Shown here: positions 1,537-23,326 of the stretch, in pieces | Layout of the letters: every line of letters begins with the position of its first letter | How positions within the stretch are numbered: position 1 is the stretch's first letter | NCBI RefSeq assembly: GCF_016432865.1 | Contig: NC_067402.1 | Coordinates: 200,167,001-200,200,000, forward strand | Origin: Antechinus flavipes | Taxonomy: Eukaryota | Reading direction: 5' to 3' | DNA length: 33,000 nt | The notes under the pieces: model-generated | What the model saw: only the letters and a program-made list of their open reading frames with translations | The model's database searches: none | Told to the model about the DNA's origin: nothing | Made by a program: the position numbers and the translations under genes

Positions 1537-1933
1537 TGTAAAGGTTAAAAAGCCTCTAGAAGCAAAGAATGCAGTTCAAGGCATGTGGGCGGACCTGAGG
1601 GATGAGAGGTACTGAGGTGCAGGTGAGTCCTACCTGGAGGTGGGACATAGCCCCAGGAAGCGGTGTCTGATCCAGGTATCATATCTCCCTCCTTAGTGAT
1701 CTCAAAGCCTAGCACACCTCTCTCCTTCTTCTCGGGCCAATCCCATTATGCCAGGTTCCTAGAGGACCTCCCCTTTCCCCAGAACCTCAGGGGGATGTGC
1801 TATCTAAGAATAAAGTTCTCTTTTGCTTCACCCCTACCTCCTGGTGGTCTGTCTCTGTGGAATCCAATGAACAGGCATTAAGAGCAGCTCAAAGAGGAGC
1901 TACCAGATTAGAGTAGTCCATAGGGGCATAACA
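1537..1933 (+). repeat. 5' LTR (397 bp)
   Basis: Starts TGTAAAGG, ends CATAACA and aligns to 5472-5919. CCAAT at about 1737 and AATAAA at 1809-1814. Lacks the TATAAA seen in the 3' LTR. Confidence 0.97.
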
Positions 1934-1935
1934 AG

Positions 1936-1953
1936 TGGCGCCCAACGTGGGGC
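1936..1953 (+). other. Primer-binding site, tRNA-Lys(CUU; Lys1,2)
   Basis: TGGCGCCCAACGTGGGGC is the 18/18 complement of the tRNA-Lys(CUU) 3' end, 2 nt after the LTR. Confidence 0.95.
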
Positions 1954-2041
1954 AATTTTGTCTAAGACCTCCCCTTGTAGCAGGCCTACAGGTGGGAAGA
2001 GAGACAGAACTCTGCTCTAGAGTGAGAAGAAAGTTAGGAAA

Positions 2042-3113
2042 ATGGGACAGATTGTTGTGAGGGTCCCAGACCAGGAGGTACCAGGGAAAGAAGCTTATAG
2101 AATAGTAAAGCAAGCAGAATTGGAAATGGATTTTAAAAAGTGGGAGGTAGTAGATAGTCAGATGGCTTCCTATGATAAGGAAACTCTGGGAGCCATCCCA
2201 GAAGGGCATCAAGTGATTGGGAGCACTTTAAGAGGTACAAGCCGCAATACATTAAAAGTAGATAATGAAGTGCAAATGGAGAGTCATAAAACAAATGAGG
2301 GTTGTAAACCAGCCCTCATGGGGACCAGCCATGCTCATAAAATGGAGCTGGCGGAAGTTATCTGTGGGAAAGAACCAGGAAATAAACAGAAAGATGAAGG
2401 AGGTGGATGTGACGTGAAAGAAGGAAGAGGTAGTGAGGAAGAAGCAGGAGGTGGATATGACAGAACAGGAAGGGGCAGGGGTAAGATGAGTAATGAGAAA
2501 GTAAACAGAGAGACATATGACCTTGAGGAAAAGGACAGTGATAAGACGAGGGAGGAGAAAGCAAACAGAGGGAAGGTCGCCTCCTTCTCCAAGGCATGGC
2601 CTTCTCCCTCATCCCCCACCTTCCCTGAGGAGATATGTCTCCCGTCAGCTCCCTCTGCACCCCTCTGTGAAGGCTTTGGAAATTCCCAGACAAGTTTAGG
2701 ACAAATAATACAGAAAGCTGGAAAGTATAAAAGAAATGAGGATCAAATGCAGTATAATGCAGCAGTATAGCAGCTGTGTCCCAATGTACCCAAAGAGCAT
2801 TTAGCAAAATTCAGGCTTCTGGAAAGCAGAGGCCCTCGATGACTAAAATTAAACAGGGCCCAGATGAACCTTTTCCTGATTTTGTGGCCCGCCTACAGGC
2901 AGCTGTTGAGAGGTCAGTGGGCAGAGAAACCTCCAGCCTCCTTGTACAGAAATTGGCAGGGGAGAATGCTAATAGTACTGCCAGAAGGCCATTCTCACTG
3001 TACATGGGGAAGCTGGCCTGAAAGAGATGATAAAGAGATGTGAGGATTCTGGCTCTAGTGCCTTTCAAATGGATGTCCTTGCAGCTGCTATATCTACAGG
3101 GGTTGCAGCAAAA
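2042..3113 (+). pseudogene. gag: gag remnant: MA and spacer with PSAP motifs, CA C-terminal domain; CA N-domain and NC deleted
   Basis: MGQ start in strong Kozak context (aaaATGG). PSAPSAP at 2642-2662, DQMQYN, MHR IKQGPDEPFPDFVARL and LAGENANS(T)CQKAI. Stop at 2768-2770, frameshifts near 2774 and 2980. No CCHC knuckles. Confidence 0.92.
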
Positions 3114-3308
3114 GATCTGCCCTGGCAGTTTGCAGACAAACAGGGGGTATTCCAACCCCTGGGGGTCTCAATTCTCAGCTACAATCAATGGGGCAGGGAT
3201 ATATTGAAGGCTTGTGGGGCCTCAGTTTATATACTCCCTCCACAGGATTTTAAATTGGGGTCATTGGGTTTTGGGGCACCACCTTTCAAATCATACCCAC
3301 ATCATTAA
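3114..3308 (+). pseudogene. pro: pro remnant (protease C-terminal part only), fused in frame to gag
   Basis: FQPLGVSILSYNQWGRDILKACG matches the retroviral protease N-x-WGRD-x-L motif. No DT/SG active site and no dUTPase motifs. Confidence 0.8.
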
Positions 3309-5175
3309 CGTGGAAACCTAACACCCCGGTTTGGGTGCCCCAGTGGCCTTTCTCAGCTTACAAAGCCCAAGCCTTATGTGGAATTATGCAACAACAGTTG
3401 AAGGCCGGACATATAGAACCAATGTCCAGCCCATGGAATAGCCATGTATTTATTATAAAGAAAAAATCTGGGAAACTCAGAATGCTAGTGGACCCCAGAG
3501 CTATTAATGTTACTATCGAACCTATAGGAGCCCTACAATCTGGCATGCCATCTCCTAACCTAGTACCCACCGGCTGGCCAGTTACAGTAATAGACATACA
3601 AGATAGTTTCTTCTCCATCCCTCTAGCCCTAGAGGAGAAGAAAAGATTTGCTTTTACTATTCCCTCTATAAACAATGCAGGGCCTGATCTGCATTACCAA
3701 TGGAAAGTTCTCCCCCGAGGGATGTGTTGTAGCCCCACTTTGTGTACATAGCGCAAGTGCTAGAACCAATTAGGAAGGCGTGGCTTCATGCCATGATACT
3801 GCATTATATGGATGATATACTGTTACCAATGAGCAATGGGAAAGACTTCTCTGCCTTGCTTAGAGACCATAAGCATTCTCACTCCACATGGAGTGATGGT
3901 AGCCCCAGAAAAGAGCCAACATAACTATTCCATCATTTACCTGGGACTCTGCATGGGGACTTCTGCAGTTACTCATCAGATACCTAACTTACCCTTAGAC
4001 AAGGTGAATACTCTGAACCTATTTCAGAAACTGGTTGGACAAATTCAGTGGTTAAGGGCTTGTGCCCTTATTCCTATTTCTTTGATGCAACCTTTATATG
4101 ACATCTTAAAAGGATGTAAGAGATACCCAGAGCCCATTAATATCCTATCAGACAGAGTATATGCTGTCCAAGTGCTCAGAGGCATTGAGGATGCTGTCCT
4201 ACAGCCTCAGAACTCTTCAATTGCTGACCTCCTTGCTGACTTGTAGCTGATTTTACAGACTAGGAAACATCCCATTTACATCCTATATGGATACTCTCAC
4301 CAATGCGGTGTAGGAGGCATATTTGCTGGCAATGAGGTGGTGGATTGTGCTTTACACTGTTCCCTTCTCACGGTCATCACACCCCCTGAGTGTGCCCGTG
4401 ATTTTCTTCACTTACCCGGTAATTCTCTATGTCACCTTTATGGCCTCACCTGTGAACAAGCCCAACGAATAGGAAAGCAGTGTGTTAATTTCTCCTTCCT
4501 CTACCTAGTAAAGGAGTTAATCCCTGGGGTTTATTCCCCAATGATTTGTGGCAAATGGACGTGACACATGTGGGCCATGTGGCCGTCCAGATTTGCATTG
4601 ACACCTTTTCTAGATTCCTTTGGGCCACAGTGCCTTTCCATGAGAACATTCCTCCAGTCATTAAACATTTGTATTGTTGCTTCTCCTTTCATGGAGTTCC
4701 TAATACCATAAAGACCAATAATGGGCCAGCTTATACCTCTAAACAGCTGGCCACCTTCCTCGCCACATTTATCATTAAACATGTTACAGGGATTCCCTAC
4801 AACCCACAGGGTCAGGCCCCAGTGGAACAGGCCCATCATACTCTGAAGGCCACCCTTCTTAAACAGAAAGGGAGAGGAAGTAGACAGAATCCCCGATGGC
4901 CCACACAGATGCATGTGGATAAGACCTTATATACTTACAATTTTATGTGCCTGGATAGGGATACCAGAAAACTAAGCTCCATGAAAACTGCGCTTCAAGT
5001 GCCAGAGAACATTCAAAAGGTCCTTTGTAAGGACGAGGAGGGACATTGGCAAGGTCCATCCTTAGTACTTTGGAGAGGGCTGGGATATTTATGTCTTCCA
5101 GATCCTGACAGGGAAGGCTGCTGGATTCCAGAAAGAAGGACAAGGAAAGTTGCCCCTATTAAAAACAGGATCTGA
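3254..5175 (+). pseudogene. pol: pol remnant: RT, partial RNase H, integrase
   Basis: LTWKPNTPVWVPQWP, SPWNS, QWKVLPRG, YMDD (3805-3816), TLNLFQKLVG, PINILSD, GVNPWGLFPNDLWQMDVTH and GIPYNPQGQ. Frameshifts near 3745, 3835 and 4495, stop at 4244-4246. The second IN catalytic Asp is Asn (KTNNG, AAT 4717-4719). Confidence 0.96.
3266..3272 (+). other. Candidate pro-pol -1 ribosomal frameshift heptamer G GGU UUU
   Basis: X XXY YYZ pattern in the correct phase of the pro frame. The -1 frame is the pol frame, open from 3254. Confidence 0.55.
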
Positions 5176-5241
5176 AATAGAAGAAAAGGAGATGACCCAG
5201 GAGATGCCCAAAACAGCGCCATAGCAGAGAGATGACTACTC

Positions 5242-5631
5242 TTGCCAGACTGGCTTAGTGATTGGATCCAATATACTTCCTTTCCCATCCCCTTCTCTTG
5301 TATCCCATGGGCTCTATGTAGCCATTTTTGTATTGTTGCTTCTTTTGCTTTTACCTACTTTGCTAGGATGCTTTATATGTATTCTTTAAAAAATTCTTTA
5401 GAGGTGCATATGAAGAGTTTCTCATTTTTCAACATGAGAACATTTGATCTTATTAATAAAAGAGGGGGAGATGTAAGGGTTAAAAAGCCTCTAGAAGCAA
5501 GGAATGCAGTTCAAGGCATGTGGGAGGACCTGAGGGATGAGAGGTACCGAGGTGCAGGTGATTCCTACGTGGAGGTGGAGCATAGCCCCAGGAGGCGGTG
5601 TCTGACCCAGGTACCACACTTTGAGAGGTAG
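5242..5631 (+). pseudogene. env: env remnant: TM membrane anchor and cytoplasmic tail reading through the PPT into U3
   Basis: DWIQY, a hydrophobic stretch, then INKRGGDV. This resembles the recalled MMTV TM end (DWTQY...KKKGGNA). SU and the TM ectodomain are absent. Confidence 0.65.
5458..5471 (+). other. Polypurine tract
   Basis: AAAAGAGGGGGAGA immediately before the 3' LTR TG. Confidence 0.93.
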
Positions 5632-5670
5632 TGCTCTCAAAGCCTAGCACTCCATTCTCTTTCTTCTCAG

Positions 5671-5754
5671 CCAATCCCATTATGCCAGGTTCCTAGAGGA
5701 CCTCCCCTTCTCCCAGAACCTCAGGGGGGTATAAATATGCTATCTAAGAATAAA
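5671..5754 (+). promoter_or_regulatory. LTR core promoter and poly(A) signal: CCAAT 5671-5675, TATAAA 5730-5735, AATAAA 5749-5754
   Basis: Motifs are in the expected order. AATAAA only 14 nt after the TATA box implies a U3-located signal and a very short R, as in MMTV/MPMV-type LTRs. Confidence 0.7.
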
Positions 5755-5822
5755 GTTCTCTTTCGCTTCACCCCTACCTACTGGTGGTCTGTCTCTGTGG
5801 GATCCAGGTTGGTGCCTGAAGA

Positions 5823-5831
5823 CAGGTAAGT
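5823..5831 (+). promoter_or_regulatory. Consensus splice donor CAG|GTAAGT in U5 of the 3' LTR
   Basis: 9/9 match to MAG|GTRAGT. It lies in a 42-bp block missing from the 5' LTR. Confidence 0.55.
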
Positions 5832-5919
5832 GTGGCCTAGCTGTGCCATTGACAGATGGGCATTAAGAGTAGCTCAAAGAGGAGCTACCAGGTTAGAGGT
5901 AGTCCATAGGAGCATAACA

Positions 5920-6835
5920 TAGTTGGTTGACTTTCTTTTCATAGTCTTGATTTTCTTCTATTTGTATTTGCTTTCAGTTTTTCCTCAGTCTCTCTCATTT
6001 GACTTTTTTGGGGAGAAGGGTTTGGATTTTTAAGTTTAATTTAGGGTTTTTTCCCTTTTTTAAGGCAATTGGGATTGTTACTTGCCCAGGATCACACAGT
6101 TAATAAGGGTCAAGTATCTGAGGCTGGATTTAAACTCCTCTTTTGATTTTTAAAGTCTTTTTTTAGTTGTATAAATTCTTTTTGGTCAGGTCATCATTCG
6201 TTGTTACTCTTGGGATAGAAGACGCTTTTAAAAAAAAAAAAAACTTCACTATCATCCTTTAAAGATGAACCTTGGTCTTCCCCATTCCCATAGTAACTTT
6301 GTATGATTGGGTTTTTTTTCTTTGTCTGATCAATTAAAAAAAATTGTTAGTATAATTACCTCTAATCCTAGATGGAGGGGATATTGCCTCTGGCTTCTGG
6401 TCTTCCTTCAGTTCTCACCTGGAACCCCAAACCAAAAACACTATCCTCCTCTAAGTGCCTACAAATAGAAGCTTCTTTGTCCCACTGCTTCTGCACATAA
6501 ACTGGTTCCTTCTCACCTAGGACAACACAGCTGAACCTGGCGCTCCTTATCAACAGAGGCTACCTCAATTTGCTCCTACTCAAACACCCAACGCCCCATA
6601 CTATCTAGGAAAAGTTCTTGTGGCTGAAATCTAGGCTTCCTTCCAACCCAGCCAACTCCAGAATTCACTGCTTCTTGTTTCAGGAGAACTAGCCTGGAAG
6701 TGTTTACACTTTACAGGAGTTAAAACTCAATCCTTACATCTTTCTTCAGATCTTCTATTGACCCCAAATACCACTGTTCTGACTCAACTCCTATTTATTT
6801 TTAGCTGCTCTGTATTTGCCCTTCCCAGAAAGGAA
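5920..6835 (-). mobile_element. HAL1-like copy A: 5' part (ORF1 N-half and 5' UTR)
   Basis: The rc of 5921-5943 is tatgaaaagaaagtcaaccaact, as at 21139-21160. The rc of 6570-6790 aligns with the 5' UTR at 30240-30470. Confidence 0.75.
6050..6140 (-). mobile_element. WSINE1-type CORE-SINE fragment
   Basis: T-tail followed by aggcaattggga...acttgcccaggatcacacag...ctgaggctggatttaaactc. Confidence 0.75.
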
Positions 6836-6848
6836 ATGGAAGTTGAAA

Positions 6849-8250
6849 AATAGTCAATGACTATAGCAATCTAGTATTTGACAAACCTAAAGATTCCCAG
6901 TTTTGGGGATAAGAATTCACTATTTTACAAAAAATGCTAAGAAAATTGGAAATGAATATGGCAGAAACTAGGCATTGACCCTAGTATATACCAAGATAAA
7001 GTTGAAATGGGTTCATGATTTGGACATAAAGAATGATATTATAAACAAATTAGAAGAACATAGGATAGTTTACCTTTCAGATATGTGGAGGAAGAAAGAG
7101 TTTGCGACCAAAGAAGAACTAGAGATCATTATTGATTACAAAATGGATAATTTTGATTATATTAATTTAAAAAGTATTTATACAAACAAAACTAATGCAG
7201 ACAAGATTAGAAGGGAAGCAACTGGGAAAATATTTTTATATTCAAAGGTTCTGATAAAGACCTCATTTCTAAAATATATAGAGAACTGAGTCAAATTTGT
7301 AATAGTTCAAACCATTCTCCAATTTATAAATAGTCAAAGGATATGAACAGACAATTTTCAGATGAAGAAATTGAAACTACTTGTAGTTATATGAAAAGGT
7401 GCTCCAAATCACTATTGATCAGAGAAATGCAAAGTAAGACAACTCTGAGATACCACTATACACCTGTCAGATTGGCTAAGATGATAGAAAAAGATAATGA
7501 CAAATGTTGGTTGGAGGGGATGTGGGAAAACTGAGACACTGATACATTGTTGGTGGAATTGTGAACGGATCCAACCATTCTGGAGAGCAGTTTGGAACTA
7601 TGCCCAAAAGGCTATCAAACTGTGCACATCCTTTGAAGCAGCAGTGTTACTACTAGGCTTATATCCCAAAGAGATCTTAAAGAAAGGAAAGGATCTATAT
7701 GTGCACGAATGTTTGTGTCAGCCTTCTTTGTAGTGGCCAGAAACTGGAAACTAAGTAGATGCCCATCAATTAGAGAATGACTGAATAAATTGTGGTATAT
7801 GAATGTTATGGAATATTATTGTTCTATAAGAAACGACCAACAGGATGATTTCAGAGAGGTCTGGAGAGACTTACATGAACTGATGCTGAGTGAAATGAGC
7901 AGAACTAGAACATCATTGTGCATGGCAACAAGACTATATGATGATCAGTTCTGATGGATGTGGCTCTTTCAACAATGAGATGATTCAAACCAGTTCCAAT
8001 TGTTCAGTGATGAAGAAAGCCATTGACACCCAGAGACAGAGAGCTGTAGGAACTGAGTGTGGACTACAACATAGCATTCTCATTCTGTTGTTTGCTCGCA
8101 TTTTGTTTTCTTTCTCTCTTCTTGATCTGATTTTTTTTGTGCAGCAAGATAATTATATAAATATGTATACATATATTGTATTTAACATATTTAACATGTA
8201 TTGGACTACCTGCTAGTTAGGGGAGGAGGTGGGAGGAAGGAGGGGAAAAT
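6849..8250 (+). mobile_element. 5'-truncated LINE-1 (ORF2 C-terminus and 3' UTR), degenerate
   Basis: ORF2 peptides MNRQFSDEEI, CSKSLLIREMQ.KTTLRYHYTPVRLA and CGKTETLIHCWW. Marsupial-type 3' UTR. Confidence 0.93.
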
Positions 8251-8574
8251 TTGGAAAAGGTTCGTTCTAATTTAGAAACTGGGGAAAAGAATGAAAGAAG
8301 TTAATATTTCAAATTCTATTAAAATGGAAACATTCCCAATGACACCTGGAAGTTACAAGAACTAAGAATGTCACTTACCTGGAATATACACATCAACCAT
8401 TGGTTAGAAGTAATTTAGATCTGACATTTTCTCCACTAGTTTGTATTAGATTAGTAGATAAGGCAATCCATGATTAACTTATTCTTATGCTTTTCCCATC
8501 TTCTAATTATTCTGGGCATCTTCAACCACCCTTTAATTCCTTTTGCGATCATTGCTCTGCTTTGGGAATCCTTT

Positions 8575-10892: not shown

Positions 10893-13138
10893 CACAGACA
10901 TGATACTGATACCTAAATCAGGTAGGATGAAAACAGAGAAAGAAAATTATAGACCAATTTCCTTAATGAATATTGATGTAAAAATGTTAAATAACATATT
11001 AGCAAAGAGATTACAGAAAGTCATCCCCAGGACCAATGACCAAGTAGAATTTATAACAGGAATGCAGGGCTGATTCAATATTAGGAAAACTATTAACATA
11101 ATTGACTATATCCATAACCAAACTAACAAAAAACCTTATGATTACCTCAATAGATGCAGAAAAAGCATTTGATAAAATACAACAAAAAAAATTTCCATCC
11201 ATTCCTATTAAAAACACTAGAGAGTATAGGAATAAATGGACTTTTCCTAAAAATGATCAGTAGTATCTGGTTAAAATCATCAGCAAGCATCATATGCAAG
11301 GAGGACAGACTAGAATCATTCCCAGTAAGATCAGGGGTGAAACAAGATTGCCCACTATCACCATTACTACTCAATATTGTATTAGAAATGTTAGATTTGT
11401 CAATAAGAGAAGAAAAAGATATTAAAAGAATTAGAGTAGGTAATGAGGAAGCCAAATTATTACTCTTTGTAGATGATATGATGGTATACTTAGAGAACTT
11501 TAGAGAATCAACTAAAAAACCACTAGAAACAATCCACAACTTTATCAGGATACAAAATAAATCCACATAAATCATCAGCATTTTTATATGTTATCTACAA
11601 AGTCCAGCAGCAAGCGATACAAAGAGAAATTCCATTTAAAATAACTGTCAATAACATAAAATATTTGGGAGACTACCTGCCAAGGCAAAGTCAGGAACTA
11701 TATGAACACAACTACATAACACTTTCCACACAAAATCAAATTTAAACAATTGGAAAAATATCAAGTGCTCGGGTAGACTAAGAATATATAATAAAAATGA
11801 CAATACTACCTAAATTAATCTACTTATTTAGTCAATCAAGAAAGTATTTTACTGATTTAGAAAAAAAATAATAACAAAGTTCATCTGTAAGAACAAAATT
11901 TCAAGAATTTCAAGGGAATTAATGAAAAAATTGCAAATAAAGGTGGCCTAGCTGTACCAGATCTAAAACTATATTATAAAGTAATGGTCATCAAAACCAT
12001 TTGGTACTGGCTAAGAATTTTACATTCAAGAGTTCTGATAAAGACCTCATTTCTAAAATATAAAGAGAACTGACTCAAACTTATAAGAATTTGATAAATG
12101 GTCAGAGGATATGAACAGACAATTTTCAGATGAAGAAATTGATATCACTTCTAATCATATGAAAAGGGGTTCTAAATCACTGTTGATCAGAGAAATGCAA
12201 ATTAAGACAACTCTGAGGTACCACTACATACCTTTCAGATTGGCTAAGATGAGAGGAAAAGATAATGATAAATGCTGGAGGGTATGTGGGAAAACTGGGA
12301 CACTAATACATTGTTGGTGGAATTGTGAATGGATCTAACCATTCTGGAGAGCAATTTGGAGCTATGTTCAAAAAGTTATCAAACTGCATACCCTTTGATC
12401 CAGCAGTGTTACTACTGGTCTTATATCCCAAAGAGATATTAAAGAAGGGAAAGGGACCTGTATGTGCAAAAATGTTTGTGGCAGCCCTTTGTAGTGGCAA
12501 GGAACTAGATACAGAATGGATGCCCATCATTGGAGAATGGCTGAATAAATTGTGGTATATGAATGTTATAGAATATTATTGTTCTGTAAGAAATGATCAG
12601 CAGGATAATTTCAGAGAAGCCAGGAGAGACCTACATGAACTGATGCTAAGTGAAATGAGCAGAATCAGAAGATCATTGCAAACAACAACAAGAAGATTAT
12701 ACAATGATCAATTCTGATGGATTTGGCTCTTTCCAACAATGAGATGACTGATGCCAGCTCTAATTGTTCAGTGATGAAGAGAGCCATCTACACCCAGAGA
12801 GAGGCCTGTGGGAACTGAATGTGGTTCACAACATAGCATTTTTACTTTTTTTTATTATTGTTTGCTTGCATTTTATTTTCTTTCTCATTTGTTTCCTATT
12901 TGATCTGATTTTTCTTGTGCAGCAAGATAATTGTATAAATTGGTATGCATATATTGGATTTAACATATATTTCTACCATGTTTGACATTTATTGAATTAC
13001 TTGCTATCTAAGGAAGGGGGTGGAAAAAGGGAGGGAATTGGAATACAAGATTTTGCAAGGGTTAATGTTGAAAAATTGGTTTAATGTTGAAAAATTATTG
13101 ACGCATATGTTTTGAAAACAAAAAAACTTTAATTAAAA
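10893..13138 (+). mobile_element. 5'-truncated LINE-1 (RT domain to 3' end) with an internal deletion near 12017 and a 14-bp TSD
   Basis: RT peptide CPLSPLLLNIVLE...LFVDDM (ORF 11154-11570) and an A-rich tail. TSD AAAATTAAGTCCTT at 10879-10892 and 13139-13152. Inserted into a MIR core. Confidence 0.95.
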
Positions 13139-17152: not shown

Positions 17153-17745
17153 ATCCCCAAAGGGCTATAAAACTATACATATCCTTTGGCCCAGCAGTGC
17201 CATTACTGGGTCTGTATCCCAACGGAATCATCAGGGAGGGAAAAGGACTCTCATTGCAAGAATGTTTGTAGCAGCTTTTTTTGTGGTAGCAAAGAATTGG
17301 AAAATGAATGAATGTCCATCAACTGGGGAGCGGTTGAGCAAGTTGTGGTATATGAAAATAATGGAATATTGTTGTTCTTTGTATAAAAAATGATGAACAA
17401 GCTGATTTTAGAAAGTCCTGCAAAGATTTACATGAACTGAGATTGAGCAAAACAAGCAGAACCAGGAATACATCATACACAGTAACAGCAAGATGGTGCG
17501 ATGATCAACTATGAAAGACTTGGTTCTTCTCAGCAGTTCAGTGATCCAAGGTAATCCCAATAGACTTTGGATAGAAAATGCCATCTGCATCCAGAAAGAA
17601 CTATGGAAACTGAATGTAAATCAATACATGCTATTTTCACTTTTTTTTTTTCCTCTTGTGGTTTTTCCTTTTTGTTCTGATCTTTTTTCTCCCAACATGA
17701 TTCATAAAAAAATGTGTATTTAAAAAGTTAATATACATGTATAAT
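17153..17745 (+). mobile_element. LINE-1 3' end (same subfamily as 21623-22160)
   Basis: ORF2 tail MFVAAFFVVAKNWK...CPSTGE.LSKLWYM. The 3' UTR shares tgatcaactatgaaagacttgg with 21905-21927. Confidence 0.9.
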
Positions 17746-19831: not shown

Positions 19832-20352
19832 TTTACCTTTTTAAAAATTAAATCTTTTTATTTTTTAAAACATATGCATGAATAATTTTCAACATTCACC
19901 CTTGCAAAATCTTGGGATCCAACTTTTTTCCCTCTCTTCCCTCCATCCCTTCCCCGAGATGGCAAGCAATTCAATATATGTCAAATATATGTCAAAAAAC
20001 AGCAATTCTTCTATACATATTTCCACAAATATCATGCTGCACAAGAAAAATCAGATCAAAAAGGAAAAAAGTGAGAAAGAAAACAAAATGAAAGCAAACA
20101 ACAACAAAAAGAATGAAAATGCTATGTTGTGATCCACACTCAGTTCCTATAGTTCTCTCTGTGGGTGTAGCTGATTCTCTTTATAACTGAACATTTGGAA
20201 CTGGCCTGAATCCTCTTGTTGCTGAAGAGAGCCTTGTCCATCAGAATTGATCATCCTATAGTCTTGTTGTTGCCATGTGTAATGATCTCCTAGCTCTGCT
20301 CATTTCATTTAGCATCAGTTCATGTAAGTCTCTCCAGGTATCTCTGAAATCC
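19832..20352 (-). mobile_element. LINE-1 3' end inserted in the copy B 5' UTR
   Basis: T-rich start and an antisense L1 3' UTR. TSD core AAGCAGTTGAT at 19814-19824 and 20353-20363. Confidence 0.88.
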
Positions 20353-22397
20353 AAGCAGTTGATCACTTAAGACAACCAAAGAAAATCCTAGGAAAGACCT
20401 GACCTTCAGGGGCAGAGGTTCTGCCATAATGAAGAGGAAATGTTTAGTCTAGGTGCAGAATCAACAAACAACAAGCTCTGGGGGCAGCTTCAGGCTTAGA
20501 AATGTCCATCTCTCAGACAGTGTGGGGTTCTGATGGTGGAGGAGAAAATTGAAGGACCTTCCCCTGTGGAGGGATGCTAAGCATAGCTGTGTTAACTAGA
20601 CACATCCATCCTGGGACAGACTGCAACTGCCTGGGAGAAAGAGGTACCGCCATCTGGGCAGTGCAGTAGCAGAGGGGCAAGGACTCTGGTGGCCGTGGGC
20701 ACCTGCAGGTGAGCAGAGTCCCTGGTTTCATTTGCAGGGAAGGGAGGACAACTGTAGTCTGCAGCCACCAGAGGGATTGCAGGAAATAAAATCCTAAGTA
20801 GGAACAGAACAGAAGGACCTGAGTCTTGGGGCATTATTCTCCTTTCTTCATAGAAGTCTAGAACCGAATCTCACTAATAGTTGCTAAAAATAAAATAAGA
20901 AAACCAAAAATAATTAGCAAAAAACCGTAGATAGCTACTATGGTGATAGAGAACACCAAGGTTTATATTCAAAGGAAGATACTAAAGCTAAAAAAGCCAT
21001 TGCTTTCTTTTCCCGTAAAAAATATCAAATGGTCCTGATTTTAAAAAGAATTCTGGGAAAAACTAAAAAAGAGTTTTAAAAACCAAATAAGAAAAATTGA
21101 GGAAAAATGAGGGGAAAATGGAGCAATACAAGAAAATTATGAAAAGAAAGTCAACCAACTTAAAATAGAGAAACAAAAACTTAAGGAAGAAAATCATTCC
21201 TTGAAAACTAGAATTGGGTAAAAGAAAGCTAATATATTCTAAGACACAAAGAAATAAAACAAAAACAAAAGAATGAAAAAATAGAAAAGAATGTGAAACA
21301 TCAGAAAAACAATGGATCTGGAGGACAGATCAAGGAGAAATAATATAAAAATAGTCAGGTTGCCAGAAAATTGTGATTTAAAAAAGACTCTTGTTACAAT
21401 ATTACAAGAAATTATAAAGGAAAAAGGAGTTCTAAAACAAAAAGGCAAAACAGAAATAGAAAAAAATCCAACAATCATCACTTGAAGGACTTTCCAGGAA
21501 GAAAATTTTCAAGAATATCATAGCCAAGTTTCAGAGCTCCCAAGTTAAGAAGAAAATATTGGAAGCAACAAGAAAAAAACTATTTAAATATTATGGAGCT
21601 AAAATTAAGATTACACAAGACCATGCAAAAGAAATTTTAAAGGAGGGAAAAGGACACATATGTGAAAAAATATTTGTAGCAGCTTTTTTTTGTGATAATA
21701 AAGAATTAGAAAATGAGTAGATGCTCATCAATTGGGAAATGGCTGATAAGTTGTGGTATATGAAGATAACAGAATATTATTGTTCTATAAAAATGATGAA
21801 CAAGCTAATTTTAGAAAGGTCTGGAAAGATTTACAAATACTGATGCCAAGCAAAGCAAGCAAAACTAGGAATACATCATATTTAGTAACAGCAAGAATGT
21901 ATTATGATCAACTATGAAAGACTTGGTTTTTCTCAGTGGTTCAGTGTTCAAAGCAATCCCAATAGTCTTTGGACAGAAAATGCCATCTACATCCTGAAAA
22001 AGAAATGAATGTAAATCAACACATGTTATGTTCACTTCTTTTTTCTGTTGTTTTTTTTTTTTAATCTCTTCCATGGTTTTTCCCTTTTGTTCTGATTTTT
22101 TTTCTCTCACCGTGATTCATAAAGTAATGTGTATTAAAAATAAATTTATTAGAAAAAAATTATTAAAAAAGACAAGTAATCTCTATTTTGATTGAATGCT
22201 CAATTAAAAACCCAAAATATATTAAAATGAAAAAAAAAAAAAAAAGAAGAGTATCCTTTGTCCATCTTTGACCAGATTGAAAGGAGAGTATTTAAATAAG
22301 GAATGATTGTTTTCAGGAAGATAGTTTCTCTAACTTACTATTGTTCTTTTTGGTAATTTAGCTTAATAGGTAAATTAAAGCTATATACCTTTGTTTC

Positions 22398-23326
22398 TTT
22401 TTTTAAAAATAAATATTTTATTTTATTTATTAAAGCTTTTTATTTACAAAACATATGCATGGGTAATTTTTCAACACTGACCCTTACAAAACCTTCTGTT
22501 CCAAATTATCCCTTCCTTCCCTCCACCCCTTTCCCTTGATGGCAGGTAGTCCAATACATGTTAAATGTGTTAAAATATAAGTTAAATCCAATATATGTAT
22601 ACATATTTATACTGTTATCTTGCTTCACAAGAAAAACTGGATCAGAAGGAAAAAAGAAAAATTGGGAAGGAAAACAAAATGTAAGCAAACAACAACAGAG
22701 AGAGTGAGAATGCTATGTTGTGATCCACCCTCAGTTCCCACAGGCTTCTCTCTGGGTGTAGATGGCTCTCTTCATCACTGAACAATTGGAGTTGTTTGAA
22801 TCATCTAATTGTTGAAGAGAGTGATGTCCATCAGAATTGATCATCATATAGTCTTGTTGCTGTCATGTACAATGATCTCCTGGCCCTGCTCATTTCACTT
22901 GGCATCAGTTCATATAGGTCTCTCCAGGCCTCTCTGAAATCATCGTTGATCATTTCTTACAGAACAATAATATTCCATAACATTCATATACCACAATTTA
23001 TTCAGCCATTCTCCAATTAATGGGCATCCACTCAGTTTCCAGTTTCTGGCCACTACAAAAAAGGCTGCCACAAACATTTTTGCACATACAGATCCCTTTC
23101 CCCCTTTCAAGATCTCTTTGGGATATAAGCCCAGTAGTAACACTTCTGGGTCATAGATTTGATAGCTTTTTGAGCATAGTTCCAAATTGCTCTCCAGAGC
23201 TATTGGATCAGTTCACAATTCTACCAACAATGTATCAGTGTCCCAGTTTTCCCACAACCCCTCCAACATTCGTCATTATCTTTTCCTGTCATCTTAGCCA
23301 ATCTGAGAGGTGTGTAGTGGTATATA
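22398..23326 (-). mobile_element. LINE-1 3' portion (ORF2 tail and 3' UTR), antisense, nested
   Basis: Antisense ORF2 peptide EILKGGKGSVCAKMFVAAFFVVARNWK. TGTTTC on both sides (22392-22397, 23327-23332) with a TTTC|AA target. Confidence 0.9.

Follow-up and report, generated by a model that had tools for sequence, protein, structure and literature searches.

Results

Structure of the provirus

The window analysed here, a 33,000-nt stretch of the Antechinus flavipes genome (NC_067402.1, assembly GCF_016432865.1), carries at positions 1537–5919 the shortened provirus of an endogenous retrovirus (ERV), all features of which lie on the plus strand. Its 5' long terminal repeat (LTR; 1537–1933, 397 nt) and 3' LTR (5472–5919, 448 nt) both run from TG to CA, have poly(A) signals at 1809 and 5749, respectively, and are flanked by 6-bp target site duplications (TSDs; 1531–1536 and 5920–5925) that agree at five of six positions. 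Between the LTRs lie an 18-nt primer binding site (PBS; 1936–1953), a short 5' leader (1954–2041) in which the packaging signal would presumably be located, and a polypurine tract (PPT; 5458–5471). The paired TG...CA LTRs, the PBS, the PPT and the short TSD with its single mismatch identify an integrated LTR provirus, and its interior of 3.54 kb compares with 7.4–10 kb in reference records; in both respects an initial annotation of this DNA, which had reported these elements and a shortened betaretroviral interior, is borne out. The PBS is identical to that in 8 of 10 full-length betaretrovirus-type records and is of a type that we take to be tRNA-Lys1,2.

That every cis element was kept, as also proposed at that stage, holds for the LTR ends, the PBS and the PPT but not for the 5' LTR, which lacks the TATA box (5730 in the 3' LTR) and a 45-nt block, both present in its 3' counterpart. 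Since a single template gives rise to both LTRs of a provirus at integration, the TATA box and the 45-nt block were likely lost from the 5' LTR of the window copy after integration. The LTR pair differs by 29 substitutions (21 transitions, 8 transversions) in 388 aligned columns, a distance of 7.5% (Kimura two-parameter, K2P, 0.08). At assumed neutral rates of 1.5–3 × 10⁻⁹ per site per year, an LTR divergence of about 8% corresponds to an age of roughly 13–27 million years. The CpG observed/expected ratio of this copy is 0.17.

Gene remnants and deletion junctions

The deletions were placed by homology to wombat ERV proteins (Gag P0070 and P0071; Pol P0001) and to the reference record L001. 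The 5' part of gag (2042–2719) starts with MGQ and comprises matrix, an acidic spacer and PSAP late-domain-like motifs; the matrix–spacer piece described initially is thus present, but the matrix itself is not intact, as 22 aa near 2125 are absent, in frame, in comparison with P0071. At the first large junction, J1 (~2719), the alignment with P0070 ends at aa 147 and resumes at about aa 262, which means that some 115 aa of the capsid N-terminal domain are gone; an Ala/Gly-coding stretch is common to both sides. The in-frame join leads into the capsid C-terminal domain with the major homology region (2720–3104), which contains two small frameshifts. At J2 (~3104–3113), P0070 matches up to aa 392 at ~3104, just before the point where zinc knuckles would start, and the gag open reading frame (ORF) runs on from ~3105 as the C-terminal half of the protease (3105–3308). 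The segment missing here (~855 nt relative to L001) comprises the nucleocapsid and 5' pro; J2 joins two naturally different frames, thereby removing the gag/pro frameshift.

The fingers, palm (with YMDD) and thumb of reverse transcriptase (RT; 3254–4114) follow in full extent, with two small frameshifts. A slippery heptamer of the type X XXY YYZ (3266–3272) stands in register between the pro and pol frames and is a predicted −1 frameshift site; the stem downstream of it is not significant (z = −1.7, with 14 of 200 shuffles equally good). At J3 (~4114), aa 1–54 of P0001 align up to 4114 and the alignment resumes at about aa 257, so that about 200 aa, the RT connection and the N-terminal half of RNase H, are gone and the C-terminal half of RNase H (4115–4370) is joined in frame. 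The integrase (4371–5235) again has its full extent, from the zinc-finger region through the core to the C-terminal domain, and bears a frameshift and a premature stop; one of its catalytic positions is altered. Of 10 ORFs compared with Pfam, six gave domains: the capsid C-domain, a protease fragment (weakly, E 0.02), RT, RT thumb, and the core and C-domain of integrase.

At J4 (~5236), Pol homology runs to 5232 and is followed by a hydrophobic tail; most of env is absent. The remnant (5236–5471) is frameshifted and of weak homology, and would represent the membrane-spanning segment and cytoplasmic tail of a B-type-like transmembrane protein (TM). We assign this label weakly, from its position and from shuffle-tested local alignments, which gave p values of 0.003–0.05 against four of five B-type TM tails and were positive for none of four D-type tails; in a tblastn search, none of 10 reference env ORFs matched 5236–5471. 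Just before J4, a second frame over the pol end (5175–5235) presumably resembles the lysine/glutamate-rich start of an env signal peptide.

Four large deletions can hence be mapped to named places, in line with the proposed minimum of four, and the matrix gap makes a fifth. The description of the interior as slices of every gene without a complete enzyme applies to capsid, protease, RNase H and env, all truncated. It does not apply to the RT fingers, palm and thumb or to the integrase, which are complete in extent and whose only damage consists of small frameshifts, stops and substitutions. Small frameshifts in the window copy number about five in total, to which two premature stops and the altered integrase catalytic position are added.

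At J1, J2 and J3, homology lies in one frame on both sides, as it does at the 22-aa matrix gap; the deletions at J1–J3 keep a single reading frame, as in the mouse element IAP IΔ1. The chance of three in-frame joins is about 1/27, or about 1/81 with the matrix gap, both calculated post hoc. The predicted coding layout is a matrix remnant, late motifs and capsid dimer domain, followed after one −1 frameshift by RT and integrase.

Recurrence of the junctions in diverged copies

Logan contigs of 22 of 24 listed runs (seven organism labels, ~2.3–4.5 Gb each) hold 16–43% of 357 31-mers sampled; the other two, X23 and X24, hold none, but are records of 1 Mb and carry no evidential weight. Contigs of four of the 22 runs (X1, X3, X17 and X19, with four species labels) were aligned to positions 1935–6300 at 80% likeness. 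The junction evidence consists of 31 listed contig records out of ~26,900 pieces, a listing that favours long and hence diverged contigs. Eight of the nine informative listed records cross a junction of the window copy, extending 31 nt or more to either side of it with no large insert: J1 is crossed by X19 record 18 and X3 record 25, J2 by X3 record 26, J3 by X1 record 6, and J4 by X17 records 12 and 13 and X3 records 29 and 30. At J4, the two contigs in each of X17 and X3 overlap but are separate and of single-copy depth. One further listed record, reaching only 13 nt past J1, was left out of this count, and the matrix gap (~2125) is crossed by X1 record 1. In contrast, the alignment of X19 record 20 (18% diverged) begins at 4115 and is preceded by 195 letters that do not align; its break at ~4114 would fit, and suggests, a relative undeleted at J3.

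The junction-crossing contigs diverge from the window by 10.3–15.3%, whereas contigs of the flank diverge by 2.5% (X17) and 5.7% (X3) in the two runs that give a flank figure. Being more diverged than these orthologous-looking flanks, the crossing contigs are paralogues; being also more diverged than the LTR pair of the window copy, they are not later duplicates of its locus. These observations support the conclusion that the deletions were copied and not acquired at the window locus. The median summed depth of the interior is 120–204 times the single-copy flank depth in the four runs (lowest bin 51–137 times), a figure that is no copy number and that we read as of the order of 100. At the LTR start, 34–55 contigs per run bear unrelated flanks (agreement 0.38–0.41), indicating many insertion sites. 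The 3' LTR–flank junction of the window insertion is bridged by none of the listed contigs. The same disabling deletions are accordingly found in independent copies (8/9 listed records, four runs), the mark of a non-autonomous ERV subfamily. Confinement of the junctions to this locus, which the initial annotation had set against its own interpretation, is not what the contigs of these four runs contain, as all four junctions recur in paralogues.

Other copies show further changes. A deletion from ~2914–2921 to 3363 is found in all four runs and one from 4710 to 4810 in three, each at ~1–2 times single-copy depth; they likely represent old orthologous loci or minor subfamilies and could be used as markers. 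In the gag spacer (2312–2421), 108 nt are replaced by 121 other letters in copies of three runs, which points to subfamily variation.

Relatives and classification

The closest proteins found are the wombat ERV proteins A0A4X2KGN5 and A0A4X2JQZ3 (Pol) and A0A4X2M4F1 (Gag), with 59–67% identity to the window element in the Pol pieces and 76–78% in the capsid C-domain. In an integrase tree of 26 rows (the window ORF, 21 retrieved proteins and four reference loci, two further loci having given no row), the element forms a clade with only two wombat proteins (support 99/100); the branch is long and the deeper forks are not resolved. Unlike the window element, the wombat proteins retain the capsid N-domain, the nucleocapsid and the RT connection/RNase H, as seen in P0070 and P0001/P0067. 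They represent the parent lineage, intact and in another family, rather than the helper itself. Together with X19 record 20, they indicate that intact relatives existed.

In a protein search with Pol, 65 of 66 matches carry retroviral integrase-type domains, and the named ones are ERVK/beta-like (36–63% identity); identity to the Pol of reference records is ~40%. With Pol nearest to ERVK/beta, gag, pro and pol in separate frames, a Lys-type PBS and a 6-bp TSD, the element is a class II, beta-like ERV. The label betaretroviral used initially stands in this broader sense, not as a strict genus placement: nesting within the genus Betaretrovirus goes beyond what an integrase that groups only with wombat proteins supports. 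The part of pro in which a dUTPase, a trait of that genus, would be encoded is among the deleted segments, and the retrieved proteins included no intact pro of the lineage.

Searches for nearer relatives gave little. No candidate among 108 proteins of near length was returned for the gag 5' ORF, for which a HMMER library search gave four matches, two informative (P0070 and P0071) and two of low complexity. A 23-nt pattern at J1 had no match in metagenome contigs, a scan of the same kind of contigs for integrase yielded 52 loci but no close relative (blastn found only short patches of 64–93% identity), and the viral contigs that matched were only 10 distant reference genomes. Among the retrieved proteins, the mole ERVK protein P0050 has Gag domains joined directly to integrase and is possibly another in-frame gag–integrase deletion product.

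Genomic surroundings

The provirus lies in an L1-dense region. At least six L1-like 3' ends occur in the window in both orientations (7323–8259, 12091–12972, 17153–17725 and 21581–22140 on the plus strand; 20003–20351 and 22496–23323 on the minus strand), and L1 3' sequence includes the repeat families D10 and D20. By eye, this L1 agrees with the one in a Tasmanian devil record, which would suit a dasyurid host; the wombat matches of the provirus point more broadly to a marsupial. In the 3' flank, positions 6080–6137 belong to a high-copy short repeat, probably a fragment of a short interspersed element, at which 54–76 contigs per run have loose ends at single places. An assembly gap of 138 N (749–886) lies 650 nt upstream of the provirus.

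Discussion

We consider it highly probable that the provirus belongs to an old, multi-copy, helper-dependent marsupial class II ERV lineage whose deletions recur in diverged copies. The initial suggestion of a lineage that replicated in deleted form is supported by the junctions in paralogues 10–15% diverged, by the ~100-fold depth and by the one contig of undeleted type. Disabling changes common to many proviruses are, moreover, an accepted signature of trans-complementation (PMC6407205). With the capsid N-domain, the nucleocapsid, the N-terminal half of the protease, the RT connection and RNase H N-half and most of env missing, all of them essential parts, the element would be unable to assemble or mature particles alone. 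We propose the following hypothetical scenario, in which (i) the deletions arose stepwise by template jumps of RT during rounds of replication, which the Ala/Gly-coding overlap at J1 would suit; (ii) the RNA of the deleted element was packaged, reverse-transcribed and integrated by the proteins of an intact relative; (iii) copying took place mainly within cells of the germline, as the loss of env would suggest; and (iv) amplification occurred about 13–27 million years ago, probably in the dasyurid ancestor.

Several points weigh against this interpretation. The contigs cover less than ~500 nt of the element and none links two junctions, so that a mosaic family with reassorted deletions fits equally well. 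For J2, as for J3, there is a single listed contig; the 8/9 count comes from listed contigs among ~26,900 pieces and 3,417 unlisted loose ends, and gives no ratio of deleted to undeleted copies; the loose ends at the LTR start may derive from solo LTRs or undeleted members. Neither a helper nor a second full-length copy was seen in the contig data, and a protein search for the fusion of RT thumb and RNase H returned none of 49 candidates at E ≤ 0.001. The argument from the reading frame is post hoc with n = 3, and codon-phased microhomology may bias deletions towards in-frame joins without any selection.

The first of these points leads to a defective swarm, in which the deletions arose separately and spread by recombination of co-packaged RNAs, the four-deletion form being one combination among many. 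The contig without the J3 deletion and the further deletions shared between runs (~2914–2921 to 3363 in four, 4710 to 4810 in three) would agree with it, and spread of a deletion by template switching has been proposed for canid ERV-Fc (PMC6407205). We nevertheless regard such a swarm as unlikely, if worth keeping in view, given that eight of nine informative listed records show the junction state of the window, and that no junction occurs among the 24 best-supported loose ends listed (3,417 further ones exist), as would be expected if a multi-deleted form were dominant. Decay of a single insertion, or later segmental or centromeric duplication of one deleted locus with orthologues as the cross-species matches, would suit a copy this old and decayed (K2P 0.08 between LTRs, several frameshifts and stops, low CpG). 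A marsupial ERV, KERV, is reportedly amplified at centromeres without replication, to go by the title of a report. The 10–15% divergence of the crossing contigs against 2.5–5.7% in the flanks, two distinct J4-crossing contigs in one run, the ~100-fold depth, the many LTR flanks and the element's own TSD already largely refute this explanation, to which we give very little weight. Hardly more credible is an integrated spliced subgenomic RNA or an L1-made processed copy whose apparent deletions are introns. Spliced endogenous forms are said to exist in other betaretroviruses, and the kept frame would suit exon joins. Yet two complete U3-R-U5 LTRs with TG...CA ends, a 6-bp TSD and the lack of a poly(A) tail denote insertion by a retroviral integrase, ordinary env splicing takes out gag-pol entire and not in pieces, and the overlap at J1 suits a template jump.

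The helper-dependent lineage, as we prefer to read the locus, still leaves two accounts of its kept frame. Replication in deleted form may have been real while the frame was kept by chance or through codon-phased microhomology, with only size and cis signals selected, as in ETn or VL30; we think this slightly likelier to be true than not. A probability of about 1 in 27 before any bias, noticed post hoc, is not prohibitive, and non-coding non-autonomous ERVK families are common (PMC10089650). On the other side stand the matrix gap, also in frame, the pro/pol slippery site still in register, and the retention of a membrane-targeting start, late motifs, capsid dimer domain, RT and integrase, all parts that would be useful to a co-assembling fusion. 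For mouse IAP IΔ1, an in-frame gag-pol fusion has been reported to act in cis, with Gag and Pol needed in trans (PMC6466679). By analogy, the in-frame fusion protein of the window element could have helped its own RNA into helper particles; a translated fusion with such a cis role is possible, although we hold it only tentatively. More doubtful still is the fullest version, an undescribed marsupial ERV parasite in which four to five successive deletions were kept in frame by selection and whose minimal fusion rode on helper Gag, pulled its own RNA into particles and outnumbered the helper across a marsupial family.

IAP IΔ1 is also a class II ERV without env in which an internal deletion has joined gag in frame to downstream genes, and its mobilisation in trans is what we propose for the window element; however, it has one 1.9-kb deletion in place of four or five (PMC6466679). 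The window element, in contrast, still has its RT polymerase and integrase; it is an old, inactive member of an unrelated marsupial lineage. Mouse ETn/MusD and VL30 and the deer-mouse non-autonomous ERVK are likewise helper-dependent with cis signals kept, and reach hundreds of copies (PMC6466679, PMC10089650), but have mostly replaced or lost their coding sequence, of which the window element keeps ~3.2 kb, ordered and in frame. In canids, CfERV-Fc1(a) proviruses share a disabling env deletion that has been taken as proof of complementation, but this lineage is gammaretroviral, younger and has one main shared deletion (PMC6407205). Among class II ERVs of Australian marsupials, Harding et al. 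(2024) defined MEBrv 1–5 from elements >6 kb, with 24.6% of devil ERVs remaining unclassified; one of the five, MEBrv 3, lacks env and has been amplified in Dasyuridae (PMC11334065). Compared by eye and without alignment (LTR starts, Pol of MEBrv 3 and 5, env end of MEBrv 4, with the pol of MEBrv 2 and 4 left out), none of the five representatives in the accessible part of that survey matches the window element. Their LTR starts are unlike its own, the integrases of MEBrv 3 and 5 lack the short WQMDVTH-to-DTFS spacing common to the element and the wombat proteins, the env end of MEBrv 4 differs, and MEBrv 1 and 2 have gamma-type env. The accessible parts of PMC4408412, PMC5711953, PMC11128018 and PMC10089650 concern other elements. 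No description of the element was found in the literature searched; Repbase and Dfam, with marsupial ERVK families such as KERV-1/MERVK1, and subscription papers lie outside that scope and may hold one. The element is of a known kind, in a lineage absent from the sources searched, and with an unusual series of frame-keeping deletions.

Non-autonomous ERVs are known mostly from rodents. The element described here is a marsupial class II addition of a kind that surveys restricted to elements >6 kb would miss, and its lineage may explain part of the unclassified ERV load in dasyurid genomes. Rare and shared as they are, the nested deletions are suited as markers to ordering subfamilies and to host phylogeny. 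If the keeping of the frame was selected, the lineage would allow the question whether cis translation helps defective retroelements to compete for helper particles to be tested a second time, independently and on a much older case. Should it prove a selected fusion parasite, it would amount to a natural deletion scan of the retroviral domains needed in cis, and the IAP IΔ1 strategy would have arisen independently outside mice.

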